IMG/VR virus record: IMGVR_UViG_3300046093_000295
Length of the DNA stretch: 64,000 nucleotides
Direction: 5' to 3' (one strand)
From: a virus
Made by a program: the position numbers and the translations under genes. The notes under the pieces were generated by a model. It searched no databases, was not told the DNA's origin, and saw only the letters and a program-made list of their open reading frames with translations. Positions 3,895-63,232 of the stretch are shown in pieces (the first letter of the stretch is position 1; every line of letters begins with the position of its first letter).

Positions 3895-4222
3895 ATATAC
3901 TCCTGATGGCTGGGTTGTAGTAGAGATCAAAGATGCTAATAAAACAGTGTTTAGGATCTTAGCATCCTGGTATGGGGGTTTTGCGGGCGTAGATTCGTGG
4001 AAACTTGGTTCTTCTATTGAGCATGTTGTTAAGCATGAAGATTTTTTCGAATTCAAAAATTCAAGTGGTAGCACTTATTTCTGCCAAAACGCTTCACATA
4101 GGATGACTATGTTAGCACGTTCAATTTATAATACGCTTTGTGCTGATGCTGCAAAATTTAATGGCAGCATTCGTATTTTGGAAATTAGTGAAATTGAAAC
4201 ATTGAATGGCAAACTTCGCTAA
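3887..4222 (+). CDS. hypothetical protein
   Basis: GTG start overlapping the previous stop (MSEYTPDGWVVV). Confidence 0.65.
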   Translation: MSEYTPDGWVVVEIKDANKTVFRILASWYGGFAGVDSWKLGSSIEHVVKHEDFFEFKNSSGSTYFCQNASHRMTMLARSIYNTLCADAAKFNGSIRILEISEIETLNGKLR

Positions 4223-4322
4223 AAATCACCTGCCATATTGCAAAACCTGCACGCAAACAGCCTTCGCAAATGTCTGCGTTTAGTTGGCCTGGAGATTAGG
4301 GCAAAAACAAATAAGGAATAGC

Positions 4323-5667: not shown

Positions 5668-6236
5668 TGGATGTCGATATTGATATAGTAAACACGTTTA
5701 ACCCAAGTAAGGCTTTCGGATGGACTAAAGCAAGCATGGTTAAGAATGGGAAACTCGGTCCACATCCTTGTGGAGTATACCCCCAACCTGTTCCGGTTGA
5801 TCATCTCACGAAGCTCTGTGCTATTCCATATGAAGAAGCCGAACAGGTCGGTTTTATGAAAATCGACTTTTTACATCTTAATGTATACTCGCATTTCAAA
5901 TCGCGACAGGAAATCGAGGAGCTCTTATGCCTTGAACCGGATTGGTCAATTCTTTTAGACCCTGAACATCAGCCCAAATTGTTTCAATTAGCAAATCATT
6001 CATCTGTACTAGATGCTATAAAGCCCAAAAGTATTGTACAATTAGCAGACGTTTTAGCGCTTATTAGACCAGGAAAAAAGAAACTGTTAACGCTCTATCA
6101 AGCACATCCTATAGCAACAAGAACACTGTTGTATGCCAAAGATGAAAACGGTTATACTTTTAAAAAGGCCCACAGTATTGCATACGCTCACGTTATCGTC
6201 CTTCAACTATTTTTAATTCAAGCCGGAGTTTTATGA
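5667..6236 (+). CDS. dnaE: miniature DNA polymerase III alpha (DnaE)-like catalytic fragment
   Basis: DVDID (PDxDxD), HPCGV (HAAGV), KIDFLHL (KFDFLGL), LALIRPG (ALYRPG), GYTFKKAHSIAYA (GYGFNKSHxxAYA). Confidence 0.85.
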   Translation: MDVDIDIVNTFNPSKAFGWTKASMVKNGKLGPHPCGVYPQPVPVDHLTKLCAIPYEEAEQVGFMKIDFLHLNVYSHFKSRQEIEELLCLEPDWSILLDPEHQPKLFQLANHSSVLDAIKPKSIVQLADVLALIRPGKKKLLTLYQAHPIATRTLLYAKDENGYTFKKAHSIAYAHVIVLQLFLIQAGVL

Positions 6237-6558: not shown

Positions 6559-7665
6559 ATGGATGTTTATAAAGTCGGAGGCGCCGTTCGCGATCAACTC
6601 ATGGGGCGCGAGCCGAAGGATGTTGATTGGGTCGTAGTCGGGTCTTCGACTGAAGAAATGATTCGACTCGGCTTTAAGCAAGTTGGGGCATCATTTCCAG
6701 TGTTCCTCCATCCCGAAACAGGGGATGAATGGGCTTTGGCTAGAACTGAGCAAAAGGCTGGTGTTGGTCATACAGGATTTTCTGTAGAGACTGAAAACGT
6801 CACAATCGAATCAGACCTTAAGCGTCGGGATTTTACAACCAACTCGATAGCTTTCAACCCCGTAAACGGGGAATACATTGATCCATATGGCGGCGTGAAA
6901 GACATCAAAGCAAAAATTCTTCGCCATACATCTTTAGCATTTTCTGAAGATCCTTTGCGCGTTGTTCGACTTGCTAGATTTTATGCTCGCTATTCTGAAT
7001 TTTCTGTTGCTGATGAAACCATGGAATTGTCAAAGCAGATTGTTAAATCTGGTGAAATGGATACCATTTCAAAAGAGCGATTTGTAAAAGAGTTTGAGAA
7101 AGTCATCCTTGACGATGGTTCAGACTTTGGCCGATTCGTTGATCTTCTTTACAAACTTGGCGTATTTCAGAACGTGCGTTTTTTCAAAGATGTTTTTGGG
7201 GATATAAGTAGTTCACATCTTCTTGAAATGAAAAAACATTTTGAAGCTGCACGTAAGTGTAACTTGGAAACGAGTGAGATTTTAGTTGCGACTTTTTCTT
7301 CAGTTATGGCGCCAAATGCAGCAAAGGTTTTTGGAAATGATGTTAACGGTGCTTTAAATGCTTTGCAAATTTTTACTTCTGCTGACTATTCAGCAGAAGG
7401 TGTTGTTTATGCTCTAGTAAAGACTCGTTCTACGAATGCTATTAGCACGCACGCAAACTGTGCCCTAAATGTTTTGGCGGCACTTTGGCCGATACAACAA
7501 AATAACTTGCTTTTTTCAGCACATGATTGGAGAAAATTCGCTTCAATCACGTCAAATCTTGATATAATCAACCTCGTAGCAAATTTTGCTGGTAAAGAAC
7601 TTGGACGCCAAATTAGTTTGGCAATGATTACTGCCATTCGACAGGAGATGAATAATGAAAGCTGA
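6559..7665 (+). CDS. cca: tRNA nucleotidyltransferase (CCA-adding enzyme)
   Basis: VGGAVRD..D.D, DL.RRDFT.N, F.EDPLRV.R.ARF. Confidence 0.92.
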   Translation: MDVYKVGGAVRDQLMGREPKDVDWVVVGSSTEEMIRLGFKQVGASFPVFLHPETGDEWALARTEQKAGVGHTGFSVETENVTIESDLKRRDFTTNSIAFNPVNGEYIDPYGGVKDIKAKILRHTSLAFSEDPLRVVRLARFYARYSEFSVADETMELSKQIVKSGEMDTISKERFVKEFEKVILDDGSDFGRFVDLLYKLGVFQNVRFFKDVFGDISSSHLLEMKKHFEAARKCNLETSEILVATFSSVMAPNAAKVFGNDVNGALNALQIFTSADYSAEGVVYALVKTRSTNAISTHANCALNVLAALWPIQQNNLLFSAHDWRKFASITSNLDIINLVANFAGKELGRQISLAMITAIRQEMNNES

Positions 7666-18347: not shown

Positions 18348-18944
18348 ATGATTAAACTTAAAAAATTTGCTGCAGATCTTGGTGTAACCAGGATGACGCT
18401 GTGGAATTGGAAGAAGGCTGGAAAAATACAATTTCATAAAATTGGTTCAATGAATTATGTTGATATTGAAACTTACAACAAATTCCTTGGTATAAAGGCC
18501 AAGGAAGAAGAACGCGTAGTGATTTATTGTCGTGTTTCTTCGACTGCAAATAAATCTAATCTTGAGACTCAATCCGAAAGGTTGATTTCATATTGTAACG
18601 CTAGAGGTTACAAAGTTGCTAAAGTCGTTACAGAATTTGGATCTGGACTAAATGATAAGAGGCCAAAACTGGAAAAGCTTCTTAAGGAACAGGATTTTAC
18701 TAAATTAGTAGTTGAACATAAGGATCGGCTGACTAGATTCGGTTTCAATTATATTGAACAGCTATTAAATTCTAATGGCATTGAAATCGATGTAGTGAAT
18801 AATGTAGAGTCAGATAAAGAAGACATTGTTCAGGATTTTGTGTCCGTCATTACATCTTTTTGCGCAAGAATTTATGGACAGCGCCGCAGCAAACGGAATA
18901 CGGAAAAATTGGTTCAAGAATTAGCTAACGATTCAGAAAAATGA
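18348..18944 (+). CDS. tnpA: IS607 serine recombinase/transposase
   Basis: N-terminal HTH, IYCRVSS catalytic motif, GSGLN.KR, VEHKDRLTRFGF. Confidence 0.95.
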   Translation: MIKLKKFAADLGVTRMTLWNWKKAGKIQFHKIGSMNYVDIETYNKFLGIKAKEEERVVIYCRVSSTANKSNLETQSERLISYCNARGYKVAKVVTEFGSGLNDKRPKLEKLLKEQDFTKLVVEHKDRLTRFGFNYIEQLLNSNGIEIDVVNNVESDKEDIVQDFVSVITSFCARIYGQRRSKRNTEKLVQELANDSEK

Positions 18945-20176
18945 CAAATACAGTTCTTAAGGCTTTTAAGTACCGAATATATCCTAATAATAAGCAAGAG
19001 AAATTTCTTCTCCAAAATTTTGGATGTGTTCGCTTCATTTGGAATCAGTTAGTTGCCAATTTTAATTCTTTTTCAAAAGAAGGCCCAAACCGACCAATGA
19101 ATGAGAAGATTTTGAAAGATGATGAGAACTTTCCATGGCTTAAAGATGCTATTAGTTATGCCTTGCAGCAAAAACGAATCGATTTTGATGAAACCAAAAA
19201 GCAATTTTTCTCTAAAAACCGTAAAGCTAAACTGGGAAGACCAAAATTTAAAAAGCGGGGTGGCAATGAATCATTTAGGATTCCTGCGGCTTCAATGCAT
19301 TTAGAAAAATTTGAACAAATTAAAGCAGGTTTTATTAAATTTCCAAAAATGTCTCCAGTAAAAGTAATCATAGATAGACCTTTTACTGGTAAACCAAAAT
19401 CTGTCACAATTTCTAAAAATCCAAGTGGGCAATATTTTGTTTCAATTTTAGTTGAAGAAGAAATAGAATTGAAACAAAATACTGGTCGCTCAATCGGTAT
19501 TGATCTCGGATTGAAAAACTTGCTCATCTTAAGTGATGGTACGCAAATTTCCAATCCAAGATGGTTCAGAGAAAACCAATCTAAACTAAAACGGTCACAG
19601 CAGCATTTAAGCAGAAAAACAAAGGGTTCTAAAAGGTACAATAAACAGAAAATCAAAGTTGCGAAAATCCATAGGGATATTGTAAATCAGCGCAAGTTCA
19701 TTTACCATAACCTGTCGAGTTGGTTAATAGAAAATTACGATGTTATTTGTACTGAAACTCTAAAAGTTAAAAACATGGTTAAGAATCATAGTTTGGCAAA
19801 ATCCATACTTGATGCAAGTTGGTCCACTTTTATTTCAATGCTGGAATACAAAAGTAGGTGGTATGGCCGCACATTTCATAAGATAGATACTTGGTTCCCA
19901 TCGAGTAAGACGTGTTCTTGCTGCGGCCATAAAATGGAAACGATGGATTTATCCATAAGAGAATGGACATGCCCAATATGCGGCTCAAGCCATGATCGCG
20001 ACTTAAATGCGGCTATCAATATTTTAAATGAAGGTGTAAAGGACCTTTATGACATGACCTCGGCTGAATTAACCGAGTACAGACGTGGAGGGGCAGTAAG
20101 ACCTAAGGAAGTTCTTCCAAAGGCAGCTTCTGTGAAGCGTTTAGTGAGTTTTATAGATTTTTATAGAACCGCGTAA
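18941..20176 (+). CDS. tnpB: TnpB RNA-guided endonuclease
   Basis: KYRIYP HTH, RuvC GIDLG / E / DRD.NAA all intact, CxxC...CxxC zinc ribbon. Confidence 0.95.
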   Translation: MTNTVLKAFKYRIYPNNKQEKFLLQNFGCVRFIWNQLVANFNSFSKEGPNRPMNEKILKDDENFPWLKDAISYALQQKRIDFDETKKQFFSKNRKAKLGRPKFKKRGGNESFRIPAASMHLEKFEQIKAGFIKFPKMSPVKVIIDRPFTGKPKSVTISKNPSGQYFVSILVEEEIELKQNTGRSIGIDLGLKNLLILSDGTQISNPRWFRENQSKLKRSQQHLSRKTKGSKRYNKQKIKVAKIHRDIVNQRKFIYHNLSSWLIENYDVICTETLKVKNMVKNHSLAKSILDASWSTFISMLEYKSRWYGRTFHKIDTWFPSSKTCSCCGHKMETMDLSIREWTCPICGSSHDRDLNAAINILNEGVKDLYDMTSAELTEYRRGGAVRPKEVLPKAASVKRLVSFIDFYRTA

Positions 20177-22077: not shown

Positions 22078-22140
22078 TAAAACAAAAATAAATTTGTAAA
22101 GATAGAAAAGTATGGTATAATTGGAGAATGCAAAAAGTGT

Positions 22141-22254
22141 GGGCCGTTAGCTCAGTTGGTTAGAGCAGAGGACTCAGGCATTCTGTTGGATAATAACAAA
22201 AGAAGCCGAAGAATAATCCTTTGGTCGTTGGTTCGAGTCCAACACGGCCTACCA
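22141..22254 (+). tRNA. tRNA-Ile2/Met(CAT) with 37-nt insertion in the anticodon
   Basis: Canonical acceptor, D and T arms and CCA; loop CTCA[22177-22213]TAA. Confidence 0.8.
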
Positions 22255-22362
22255 TTTATGTTTTGGAAATTTGTATATGATTAGAAAGACCTCTTTGTCC
22301 GGCCATAACTCAGATGGATAGAGTAATTTTGAGTATTTAACCTTTTACCTGATTGTACTTTG

Positions 22363-22439
22363 CTCGCCAGTACCGGAGCGCTCTTCTAAAGCGTAGTACC
22401 GTAACGGAGTCAATGGTGGTTCGAATCCACTCTGGCGAG
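22363..22439 (+). tRNA. D-armless tRNA-Arg(TCT)-like domain nested in the intron region
   Basis: TCGCCAG/CTGGCGA acceptor within a 16-bp stem, GCGCT-CTTCTAA-AGCGT arm, GGTGG-TTCGAAT-CCACT T arm, only TACCGGA where the D arm should be. Confidence 0.6.
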
Positions 22440-22532
22440 CAAAGTACATTTTAATTTATTATTCTAGATAGAATAATTTGAGTTACAATAATTCTACGAC
22501 AATGAATAAGAAGCAAATATGTTAAACAGTTC

Positions 22533-22760
22533 TAATGGGGCACATAAATAGGGATGTTTATTGTGAATGTAGTCAAATTCGGCGAACGCTGCATAAATAC
22601 ATTTAATCCAGAGGACAGTATTTTTATGCCAACGCCGAGCGAAGCCTTGAAAAAGGAACGTGTAGAGACTTGACGGCTACCATCTAGAACAGATGAAGAC
22701 AAAGCTCAGACCACGCGCGGGAAGATAAAAATTCTCAGTAGCGAAAGCTATAGTGGTAAG
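22533..22760 (+). ncRNA. group I intron catalytic core (IC3-like)
   Basis: P2, P3 GTAGTC/GGCTAC, P4 TTCGGCG/CGCCGAG, P5, P6 CG/CG plus CCTT/AAGG, P7 GAGACTT, P8 CATCT/AGATG, P9 TAGC-GAAA-GCTA, P9.0 ACCAC/GTGGT, putative terminal G22760. Confidence 0.88.
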
Positions 22761-22817
22761 CTAAGCAATAAGTCGCTGGTTCGAATCCAGCTGGCCGGAC
22801 AAAGGGGTTTTAAAATT

Positions 22818-22901
22818 GGATGTCTATACCACTAAGGAGGTGGCCGGAATTGAACACTCCGCGTTTTTATAACATGCCAGGTTCGATACCTGGGGCATCC
22901 A
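22818..22901 (+). tRNA. atypical class II tRNA-like element (9-nt anticodon loop; identity unclear)
   Basis: GGATGTC/GGCATCC acceptor, CCAC/GTGG D stem, CGGA-ATTGAACAC-TCCG, CCAGG-TTCGATA-CCTGG. Confidence 0.5.
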
Positions 22902-22915
22902 ATCAAAGTATTTTT

Positions 22916-23005
22916 GGAGTGTAGGGTCTATGGCAGACACACGGTCTTGAAAACCGTCCCACCGTTGATGAAACGGTGATAGTTCGATTCTATTATGCTC
23001 CTCCA
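22916..23005 (+). tRNA. tRNA-Ser(TGA)
   Basis: GGAGTGT/ATGCTCC acceptor, ACGGT-CTTGAAA-ACCGT, long variable arm, CCA. Confidence 0.8.
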
Positions 23006-24282: not shown

Positions 24283-24345
24283 AGGATCAGGTAGTTGGTA
24301 GTTGGTAGTTGGTAGTTGGTAGTTGGTAGTGGGTTCAACACCTGC
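24248..24345 (+). pseudogene. pseudo-tRNA with heptamer expansion
   Basis: 5' half of the 25248 tRNA, then (GGTAGTT)n, then a T-arm-like hairpin; no matching 3' acceptor. Confidence 0.65.
24290..24330 (+). repeat. tandem repeat (GGTAGTT) x ~6
   Basis: Five exact units plus GGTAGT. Confidence 0.95.
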
Positions 24346-62176: not shown

Positions 62177-63232
62177 ATGACAAACCCTATGATTAAATTC
62201 CCAAGCATCGGCCAATTTCGCGATGCTATCAAGCAGATTCAATCTAGCGCCAAGTACCACGGGAAGCCAGTACCGAAACTGAAAATGGTCGGTTTTATCA
62301 AGGCACACGGGTCCAATGGTGGAATTGTCCGCAAAGTCGGCGGAACTGCCGAAGACATTTACTTCCAGTCTCGCGAACGCATTCTGTCGCTGGAATCAGA
62401 TAATGCAGGTTTCTGGTTCTGGGGGAATTCCATTCGTGCTGAACTGAATGACATGTTCAATCGAATCGAAAAGGCATGTCCGGGCAAAACTGGTTATATT
62501 CAAGTATTCGGCGAATGGGCGGGTGGTAGTATCCAATCCGGCGTCGGTTTGACTGGCCTCGACAAATTCTTCATGGTATTCGGTATTCGCGTTTCTGAAG
62601 ATGCTGAGTGCACCGACTGGGAACCAAAAGTAGTCTATGATGAAGTCTTTAAGTTCGAAGTTCATCCTTCTGTCTTTGACAAGTATTTCTTTAAGACATG
62701 GAAAATCGAAATCGACTTTTCCAATCCGGCACTGATGCAAAATGAGTTGGTTCGTATTACTCAAGAAGTTGAAGCTGATTGCCCTGTTGCTCGCTACTTC
62801 AAGCCCGATGCAGAAATTGGTTCCCTTATCGGCGAAGGCGTAGTATGGGTTGTCGAAGAAGGTCAGGACTGTGGCTTTGATGTTTTGTCGGTGATGATGA
62901 AGATAAAGGGAGAAAAACATAGTGTTTCTAAAGTCAAGACTGTTGCTGAAGTAGATGTCGAAAAAGTTAAGAGTATTGCTGACTTCATTGAGTATGCAGC
63001 AACTGAAAATCGACTTGAGCAGATGTTCCAAAAGGCTGTAGAATTGCAACTTGAGATTAGTGCGAAGTCCACTGGTGCATATATCAAGCTTGTGGTAGGT
63101 GATATTTTGAAGGAAGAATTAGATGTGATGGCGGCCTCGCAAATTGAACCCAAGGATATCGGTGGTCCTCTTGCGACAAAGGCGCGAGAGTTCTGGTTTA
63201 AGAAAGTAGAAGAATCTGTCAATCTGGGGTAA
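62177..63232 (+). CDS. RNA ligase (Rnl2-like nucleotidyltransferase)
   Basis: KAHGSN (KxHGxN), FGEW, GEGVVW, KIKGEKH motifs. Confidence 0.8.
   Translation: MTNPMIKFPSIGQFRDAIKQIQSSAKYHGKPVPKLKMVGFIKAHGSNGGIVRKVGGTAEDIYFQSRERILSLESDNAGFWFWGNSIRAELNDMFNRIEKACPGKTGYIQVFGEWAGGSIQSGVGLTGLDKFFMVFGIRVSEDAECTDWEPKVVYDEVFKFEVHPSVFDKYFFKTWKIEIDFSNPALMQNELVRITQEVEADCPVARYFKPDAEIGSLIGEGVVWVVEEGQDCGFDVLSVMMKIKGEKHSVSKVKTVAEVDVEKVKSIADFIEYAATENRLEQMFQKAVELQLEISAKSTGAYIKLVVGDILKEELDVMAASQIEPKDIGGPLATKAREFWFKKVEESVNLG

Follow-up and report, generated by a model that had tools for sequence, protein, structure and literature searches.

A mobile tRNA cassette has probably overwritten an intron-split tRNA-Arg(UCU) gene in a phage genome

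Can a tRNA gene that lies inside the group I intron of another tRNA gene with the same anticodon be part of a working design, or is such nesting the trace of something else? This question is raised by a locus in the virus record IMGVR_UViG_3300046093_000295, of which a stretch of 64,000 nt (the window) was analysed; all coordinates below are positions within this window unless a contig is named, and the features described for the locus lie on its plus strand. The window is phage DNA, as judged from strong PHROG matches that include a tRNA nucleotidyltransferase, that is, a CCA-adding enzyme (6559-7662; phrog_2244, E 2e-90), and an RNA ligase (62177-63229; phrog_548, E 2e-60). Direct reading of 22100-23000 together with Rfam searches located all three pieces of the locus, namely the two halves of an outer tRNA-Arg(UCU), an inner tRNA(UCU) and a group I ribozyme, which follow one another along the strand as outer 5' half, inner tRNA, ribozyme core and outer 3' half. 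ARAGORN called none of these three in the window. A first-pass annotation, made from the letters alone, had described this layout correctly, and had read it as one coherent nested gene from which both tRNAs mature. That second part was not supported, because an insertion-free allele of the locus exists and no single splice in the window gives a cloverleaf. We consider it probable instead that a mobile tRNA cassette overwrote an intron-split tRNA-Arg gene, leaving the outer tRNA as a relic and the inner tRNA as the product; the nesting is probably not a working design.

The outer tRNA was read directly from the sequence. Its surviving 5' exon (22299-22328) comprises the acceptor 5' strand CCGGCCA (22299-22305), the D arm (22308-22324) with the Arg-type loop AGAUGGAUA, A26 and A27-U29. 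Its 3' exon (22761-22799) comprises C35, U36, A37 and A38, the anticodon-stem 3' strand GCAAU, the variable loop, the T arm (22775-22791) and the acceptor 3' strand UGGCCGG (22792-22798), which pairs with CCGGCCA; the discriminator is A22799, and CCA is not encoded. A leader strand containing CUUUG (22286-22298) pairs with 22799-22811, which takes in the trailer strand CAAAGGGGUUUU (22800-22811), and the two lengthen the outer acceptor helix to about 20 bp, counting G-U pairs. Of the anticodon-stem strand AUUGC, the window keeps only AUU (22326-22328), and the sequence that follows A-AUU is unable to pair with GCAAU. Splice products were judged by direct reading and folding in place of ARAGORN join scores; the scoring of all joins between 5' ends at 22322-22464 and 3' starts at 22700-22775 by ARAGORN was uninformative, with hundreds of implausible joins accepted. 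By direct reading and folding, no window join made by a single group I excision yields a cloverleaf of normal length. The P1-compatible joins all lack the 5-bp anticodon stem, and the D arm of the best product is misfolded.

A different state of the same site was found in a contig of the freshwater DNA run X4, a run in which the window form is also present. In this contig, 22328 is joined to 22536 via 14 other letters (depth 4, with 30 nt on the shorter side). The first of these letters, GC-CUU, complete the stem strand AUUGC and loop positions 32-34, and the following 9 nt lead into UGGGGC. A P1 helix forms between GCCUU, at the end of the exon, and the guide GGGGC, and its two U-G pairs lie at the splice site. 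When this allele is spliced in silico to 22761-22799, a 74-nt RNA results whose minimum-free-energy structure is a perfect cloverleaf and which ARAGORN calls tRNA-Arg(tct). Compared with it, the window carries 207 nt (22329-22535) in place of 14 nt, and these 207 nt stand where the other allele has G30-U34 of the outer exon, the 5' splice site and the opening 9 nt of its intron. The insertion-free allele is a perfect intron-split tRNA-Arg(UCU), and the inner tRNA was therefore brought in by an insertion that cost the gene the end of its 5' exon and the beginning of its intron. Because G30-U34 and the 5' splice site are absent from the window, the outer tRNA cannot be rebuilt there by a single splice. 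The first-pass annotation had picked ATTGT (22352-22356) as the anticodon-stem partner and had proposed mutually exclusive folds of the two tRNAs; the true partner is AUUGC in the insertion-free allele, so that the match of ATTGT is coincidental and the folding idea that rested on it is given up.

The insertion-free allele and the window form belong to a series. Three states occur at one site in near-identical genomes, with 14 nt, 207 nt and 207+836 nt, respectively, amounting to a presence/absence polymorphism. The longest state is found in L018 (the same record as L039; L040 is alike), whose identity to the window is 99% as far as 22458 and about 96% from 22483 onwards, and which carries 836 extra bases between these two positions; the window has a perfect 8-bp palindromic hairpin (22459-22476) at the place of these bases. 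Within the 836 bases, L018 and L039 contain an intact open reading frame (ORF) of 250 aa on the opposite strand, with matches (E 1.5e-9, 8e-8 and 8e-4) to PHROG families that are annotated as Holliday junction resolvase, endonuclease and homing endonuclease, the weakest being that to homing endonuclease, and a NUMOD3 match under the Pfam cut-off (18.2 vs 20.4 bits, E 2e-3). The alleles compared show no difference at all within 22276-22448, a region that takes in the entire inner tRNA, and the outer halves with their 20-bp clamp are unchanged in all alleles. The lesions differ by allele, lying in P7 of the ribozyme as a CU variant (window, L025 and L032), in the guide (L018) and at A37 (22763), which is G in L018 and L022. 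Look-ups via neighbouring proteins returned the window form or the long form only, and the relatives reached via a neighbouring 187-aa protein (L027-L031, 43-50% identity) had no tRNA or intron at the corresponding place.

The ribozyme (22536-22760) had been taken by the first-pass annotation for an IC3 group I intron resembling that of Azoarcus and inserted at 34/35, and the kind of intron and its position are supported. The covariance model RF00028 matched 22513-22709 over model positions 1-253 with E 1.2e-8, at 40.8 bits and so below the curated gathering cut-off of 50 bits; the L018 allele, at 46.3 bits, is also below it, and the relatives in L009 (67.9 bits) and L046 (59.8 bits) pass. The core (22541-22760) comprises P2 (22541-22565, with a GGGA loop), P3 (22569-22574/22675-22680), P4 (22578-22584/22633-22639), P5 (22591-22597/22623-22629), P6 (22645-22648/22653-22656, with a GAAA loop), P8 (22681-22685/22691-22695) and P9 (22710-22714/22753-22757, with two inner hairpins), and a P7 (22665-22671/22702-22707) that was read by hand against L010. 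From five introns (window, L018, L010, L046 and L009), RNAalifold recovered P3, P4, P6, P8 and the GAAA-capped P9 hairpin, with both-sided changes in 20 of the 41 pairs. The closest relative of the intron lies in L010, a 124-kb phage, between positions 34 and 35 of an otherwise intact tRNA. Relative to L010, the P2 pairs of the window differ under the same GGGA loop and two P3 pairs are flipped; P4, the P7 5' strand and P8 are identical, and the P9 domain has the same shape built from other bases, so that the changes in P2, P3 and P9 are compensatory. Because the outer 3' exon aligns with that of L010 base for base, the 3' splice site is placed after the terminal G22760 of the intron, directly before the 3' exon CUAAGCAAU, and the exon starts with C35-U36-A37-A38; together with the in silico splicing of the insertion-free allele, this locates the insertion at 34/35, the position at which tRNA-Leu introns are inserted. 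The P4 strings TCAAATTCGGCGAA and AACGCCGAGC were matched in at least 120 species of bacteria, most of them Burkholderiales or Rhodocyclales, with a Limnohabitans genome among the matches, and this distribution fits an Azoarcus-like IC3 intron. A scan of IMG/VR found both strings in nine viral contigs, L010 among them, and they are shared by the phage tRNA introns of L009, L010 and L046, of which L009 has its intron in tRNA-Ile(CAU) and L046 in tRNA-Asn(GUU). As judged from its sequence, the core is supported as an IC3-like group I intron, of the sort found in tRNA anticodon loops, at 34/35 of tRNA-Arg(UCU).

Some further features of these relatives were recorded. The tRNA that is split at 34/35 in L010 (1655-1950, minus strand) has the anticodon UCA, which reads UGA, and the same tRNA cluster contains a match to the c-di-GMP-I-GGC riboswitch model (5949-6028; 62.4 bits, cut-off 59). 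In L009 (444-760, minus strand), the tRNA-Ile/Met(CAU) carries its Azoarcus-type intron after position 36, and a degenerate, incomplete copy of the gene's 5' half lies immediately before it.

Two parts of the ribozyme are altered in the window. P1 is missing, since the exon end is deleted; the internal guide GGGGC (22537-22541) can base-pair with a nearby GUUCU or form a weak helix with CCUU at 22341-22344. The local hairpin GUUCU-AAU-GGGGC (22529-22541), identified by direct reading and alignment with L010, L046 and L009, would sequester the guide. In addition, the P7 3' strand has CU at 22705-22706, giving AAGCUC in the window, L025 and L032 and the canonical AAGUCC in L017, L018, L022, X4 and L010; the CU form is a real variant, since it is also present in L025 and L032. 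P7 is the site at which group I ribozymes bind guanosine. In the usual register, the CU swap would replace the G-C pair that binds guanosine by G-U, with an A-C mismatch next to it, and we infer from this that catalysis is affected; the canonical site, a bulged A followed by a G-C pair, is absent from the window, L025 and L032. In L018, it is the guide that is damaged, from GGGGC to GGAC (22537 deleted, 22540 G>A), and this allele also has an unpaired change at the base of P5 and a 21-nt insert in P5.

These alterations bear on the alternative that comes closest to the original nested-gene proposal, in which the ribozyme splices via a P1 formed by CCUU (22341-22344) and GGGG, frees an intron containing the inner tRNA and ligates an 85-nt outer RNA that functions despite 11-12 extra bases in the 5' strand of its anticodon stem. 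In its favour, a CCUU with a U after it does lie 12 nt past the break, the loop after joining would be CUUCUAA, L017 and L022 have a canonical P7, and the outer halves and their clamp do not vary across alleles. We nevertheless regard this alternative as unlikely, because the joined RNA has no anticodon stem, offering at best 3 bp, a 12-nt bulge and 1 bp; because the 5' strand of its D arm pairs with a duplicated UUUGAGU instead; and because the guanosine-binding pair of P7 is disrupted in the window and the GGGG guide is lost in L018. A homology of the window's CCUU...UGAUU to the 14 nt of the insertion-free allele was considered and dropped, as 32% of shuffled 14-mers score as high and the likeness is not significant.

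If the outer tRNA is a relic, the inner RNA has to be accounted for. A second tRNA(UCU) between the outer 5' half and the ribozyme core, as claimed at first pass, is borne out by its RF00005 score of 36.8 bits against a cut-off of 29. Rfam and a family alignment define a tRNA-Arg(UCU) gene (22355-22447), its acceptor helix lengthened by 9 bp, in which the tRNA body (22364-22438) is followed by the discriminator G22439, CCA is not encoded, the anticodon is U22385-C22386-U22387, and a perfect 16-bp helix (22355-22370/22432-22447) encloses the whole. With only 7 nt between its acceptor and anticodon arms, this RNA has no standard D stem-loop, and it had been described as D-armless. This description was too simple, as a covarying 3-bp "D" helix (22374-22376/22399-22401) encloses the anticodon arm. 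Behind this helix lies a 13-nt linker (22402-22414, UAAYGGAGUCAAU) with a D-loop-like GGA, which resembles G18-G19-A20 of an Arg-type D loop; the same UGGA is present in the D loops of the outer tRNA and of T4 tRNA-Arg, and A20 is an Arg identity element in Escherichia coli. Read in this way, the sequence has the order of anticodon arm and D loop swapped in the rewired family, and neither is lost.

This fold is shared by a family of RNAs. Eleven distinct sequences, all with the anticodon UCU and the loop CUUCUAA or CUUCUAC, were aligned without trouble (alignment A2), and their length is that of normal tRNAs (75-76 nt). When pairs were counted in A2 for a structure made of the acceptor stem, the 3-bp helix (columns 11-13/36-38), the anticodon stem and the T stem, 99.5% of cells were paired and 16 of the 20 pairs showed both-sided changes, a result that none of 500 shuffles reached, and only 37-50% were paired when the partners were slid. 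Within the 3-bp helix, A-U and G-C alternate at one position and four pair types occur at the next. A blastn search of GenBank phages found the core of the inner tRNA, at 87-95% identity and unannotated, in Limnohabitans phage DC31 and ten Pseudomonas phage records, among them PAK_P2, JG003, phiPsa397 and five P. putida phages, and two pattern scans of IMG/VR added 13 further contigs. Outside the window, members of the family stand alone as genes behind a TTGAC/TATAAT promoter; most of them have CCA encoded, and the window copy and L042 do not. The member in L042 (7100-7230, minus strand) stands alone, outside any intron, and has a 15-bp extended acceptor helix and no CCA; an extended clamp is therefore not specific to the nested setting. 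Among seven ORFs tested beside family members in other phages, five encode HNH or homing endonucleases (E 1e-26, 1e-38, 4e-8, 2e-35 and 6e-6), and the long allele of the present locus adds an endonuclease of a type other than those neighbours. Homing would be a plausible means of spread for such a gene. In the literature, we found no description of a rewired tRNA(UCU) family, an absence that is no proof of novelty.

In several large phage tRNA sets, this family supplies the only UCU gene. No canonical tRNA-Arg(UCU) was found in the stretches examined of the family-bearing arrays L044, L046 and L003, which hold 18, 11 and 13 canonical tRNAs, respectively, or by ARAGORN and Rfam in the window, where AGA makes up 17% of the Arg codons in long ORFs. 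Among these arrays, the L044 contig combines about 20 tRNA genes with one for tmRNA (3936-4294, minus strand; beta_tmRNA model 109 bits, permuted tmRNA model 118 bits). The inner RNA might nevertheless take no part in translation. It could instead serve as a decoy or mimic, such as a lure for an anticodon nuclease of the host or a signal for processing, in which case the locus would be without an Arg(UCU) decoder. The non-canonical D arm, the missing ARAGORN call and GenBank annotation, and the long clamp and lack of CCA of the window copy would all agree with such a role. We find it improbable, since the anticodon loop is invariably CUUCUAA or CUUCUAC, the acceptor, anticodon and T helices covary, the D-loop-like GGA is kept in the linker, where A20 would sit, most copies encode CCA, and the gene is the sole UCU gene of several large phage tRNA sets.

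We therefore return to the replacement of one tRNA-Arg gene by another, for which the following course of events may be envisaged. The ancestor would have been a phage tRNA-Arg(UCU) gene split between U34 and C35 by an ORF-less IC3-type intron, with a P1 of GCCUU and GGGGC, a form that persists either in this lake population or in a closely related phage. A rewired tRNA-Arg(UCU) would have been travelling with free-standing homing endonucleases, by analogy with the tRNA DNA that moves with SegB in T4/T6. The cassette, consisting of the rewired tRNA-Arg(UCU) and, in one sister allele, of an opposite-strand endonuclease gene that the window form lacks, would have landed at the exon/intron junction in the P1 region, turning 14 nt into 207 nt in the window and into about 1040 nt in the endonuclease allele. 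With G30-U34 and the 5' splice site lost in this event, one splicing event could no longer rebuild the outer tRNA, so that its function would be gone and the outer halves and the ribozyme would be decaying as passengers, with different lesions in each allele. The inner tRNA would be transcribed along with the rest of the tRNA run, from a start at about 22094-22121. A promoter-like site is located there by a consensus scan (TTGTAA, 16 nt, TG-TATAAT; 10 of 12 matches, with an extended -10), and from its sequence and its position upstream of the tRNA run 22141-23005 it is likely the start of a transcript carrying the whole locus. RNase P and a 3' nuclease would then release the inner tRNA from the transcript, CCA would be added by the phage enzyme (6559-7662) or that of the host, and the charged tRNA would take over AGA decoding from the gene that its own insertion had broken, break and replacement being made in one step. 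More tentatively, the inner RNA may represent an undescribed class of working tRNA, with the D stem over the anticodon arm and the D-loop segment after it, that is spread by homing endonucleases as a self-complementing cassette; such a cassette could destroy a resident tRNA-Arg(UCU), intron-bearing or not, as the replacement comes along with it, and the rewired core might also escape host nucleases that target canonical tRNA.

Two further alternatives fare worse. In the first, the 16-bp-clamped inner tRNA would act as a tRNA-shaped intron, cut out by RNase P and a 3' nuclease, and the flanks would be joined by the phage RNA ligase (62177-63229) as a first step to restoring the outer RNA. The clamp would indeed draw the flanks together, and the phage encodes both an RNA ligase and a CCA-adding enzyme. 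Such excision cannot restore the outer tRNA, however, because the exon bases are absent: removal of either 22364-22439 or the whole clamp recreates neither AUUGC-CUU nor P1. The family to which the inner RNA fully belongs consists, moreover, of tRNA genes that stand alone and have promoters and CCA of their own, and we judge protein-mediated excision very improbable. As to the second, that the nested layout is an assembly chimera never present on one DNA molecule, many contigs of the phage do end in the tRNA region (at 22170-22176, 22293 and 22865), but the idea is hardly credible given that five independent assemblies from different samples (L017, L022, L025, L032 and record 28 of run X4) span the layout, identical or with 2-8 substitutions, and that most of the stretch is present in 21 freshwater DNA runs. 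Record 28 of run X4 has the exact window form over 22299-22569 at a depth of 11.9. The nested arrangement is real DNA and no assembly artefact.

Several observations weigh against the replacement of the outer gene by the inner one, or soften it. The insertion-free allele is known from one low-depth contig only, its junction was not found in two scans of Joint Genome Institute (JGI) metagenome contigs, and it could come from a closely related phage rather than from the same population. The window itself has no endonuclease gene, and its short insert may be either a deletion derivative of the long insert or the precursor of it. Allele diversity is low overall, so that the decay of the outer gene, read from a few changes, is suggestive. 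As far as pairing goes, CCUU at 22341-22344 can still pair with GGGG, and the ribozyme of L017 and L022, with its canonical P7, might be cleaving and ligating. Finally, nothing was found on 22276-22557 in three freshwater metatranscriptomes, nor any splice joint for the locus among their contigs, and those of their contigs that fall on the ribozyme core belong to tRNA-Ile introns of other organisms.

The surroundings of the locus have features of their own. Upstream, a tRNA(CAU) gene of the Ile2/Met type (22141-22254; 57.6 bits, CCA encoded) is interrupted within the anticodon by an insert of 37 nt (22177-22213) that forms a hairpin. An insert-free DNA contig of this gene is present in run X4, and several assemblies break at 22170-22176. 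Insert-free RNA contigs also exist; because they diverge from the window about 26 nt past the joint, they are from other organisms and show no splicing. The motif CAAAG stands directly after the discriminator in three consecutive CCA-less tRNA-like genes, namely the outer Arg gene (22800-22804), the inner Arg gene (22440-22444) and an odd 86-nt gene at 22817-22902 (22904-22908). CUUUG stands upstream in the same register in both Arg genes, and the window tRNAs with encoded CCA have no CAAAG; the motif may be a shared processing signal or a stretch of recombination homology. Further downstream, a 7-nt GGTAGTT unit at 24290-24303 varies in copy number, with one copy fewer in L017 and two fewer in L018 than in the window. 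An IS607-like pair of a serine resolvase and a TnpB/OrfB transposase occupies 18348-20176 (Pfam; phrog_506, E 2e-128).

The locus has a meaning beyond this one phage. Group I introns do occur in phage tRNA genes, here and in tRNA-Ile(CAU), tRNA-Asn(GUU) and tRNA(UCA) of IMG/VR contigs. The three-allele series would represent a mobile cassette caught, in one lake population, in the act of overwriting a tRNA gene of the same anticodon, and would afford a rare view of the turnover of phage tRNA sets and of ribozyme decay after the loss of exon context. The rewired tRNA is missed by annotation pipelines and is present in cultured phages (PAK_P2, phiPsa397 and their relatives, and Limnohabitans phage DC31), which makes it accessible at the bench.

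Introns of the IC3 kind are known from the anticodon loops of bacterial tRNAs, including Azoarcus tRNA-Ile(CAU), Agrobacterium tRNA-Arg(CCU) and cyanobacterial and plastid tRNA-Leu(UAA) (PMC3984707; Azoarcus structures in PMC13168695), while the phage group I introns known by 2014 were all in protein-coding genes (review PMC3984707). The intron described here resembles the former in being a small ORF-less ribozyme with P2-P9, in its place in the anticodon loop and in the shared P4 strings. It differs from them in its host gene, a phage tRNA-Arg(UCU), and, in the window, in the loss of the 5' splice site and exon end, in the altered P7 and in the tRNA gene that occupies the former P1 loop region. 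A second point of comparison is the group I intron of tRNA-fMet in Synechocystis PCC 6803, which encodes the endonuclease I-Ssp6803I (cited in PMC3984707). There, too, an anticodon-loop group I intron is tied to an endonuclease gene, and a presence/absence polymorphism like the present one is to be expected of such an element. In contrast to the Synechocystis case, the ORF in our locus lies on the opposite strand, is found in the sister allele only and is accompanied by a tRNA gene, and the host intron did not tolerate the insertion but was broken by it. Any likeness of the 250-aa ORF to I-Ssp6803I extends no further than its role, and no solved structure matched the ORF below E 0.1.

A parallel for a moving tRNA gene is SegB, a free-standing homing endonuclease of the T4/T6 tRNA cluster, which moves flanking tRNA DNA by gene conversion (PMC2330249, PMC13096335). 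As with SegB, endonuclease genes adjoin phage tRNA genes both in the long allele and in five of the seven further neighbourhoods. SegB is a GIY-YIG enzyme that mobilises canonical tRNAs, whereas the cargo here is one non-canonical tRNA that landed inside a tRNA gene of the same anticodon. For a tRNA gene within a group I intron, there are precedents in fungal mitochondria, sometimes beside a homing endonuclease ORF (Ophiostoma atp6-i1 and cox1; PMC7902536), although the host genes of those introns are mitochondrial and protein-coding. The first-pass annotation had stated that no tRNA within an intron of a tRNA gene was known. We likewise found no report of a tRNA within a tRNA-gene intron, nor of any such case in a phage; the nesting at the present locus is most likely an insertion scar. 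The rewired fold, in turn, recalls the D-armless mitochondrial tRNAs such as metazoan tRNA-Ser(AGY), which have no standard D stem-loop and read AGN codons (PMC9427863). The phage family shares both of these traits and differs in its normal length, in the D-like helix kept over the anticodon arm and in the GGA segment that follows it. Taken singly, the parts of the locus have known counterparts: IC3 introns in tRNA genes, homing cassettes and tRNA genes within group I introns. New are the phage tRNA setting, the position of a tRNA in what was once the intron of another tRNA that shares its anticodon, the series of three alleles and the rewired fold of the cargo.

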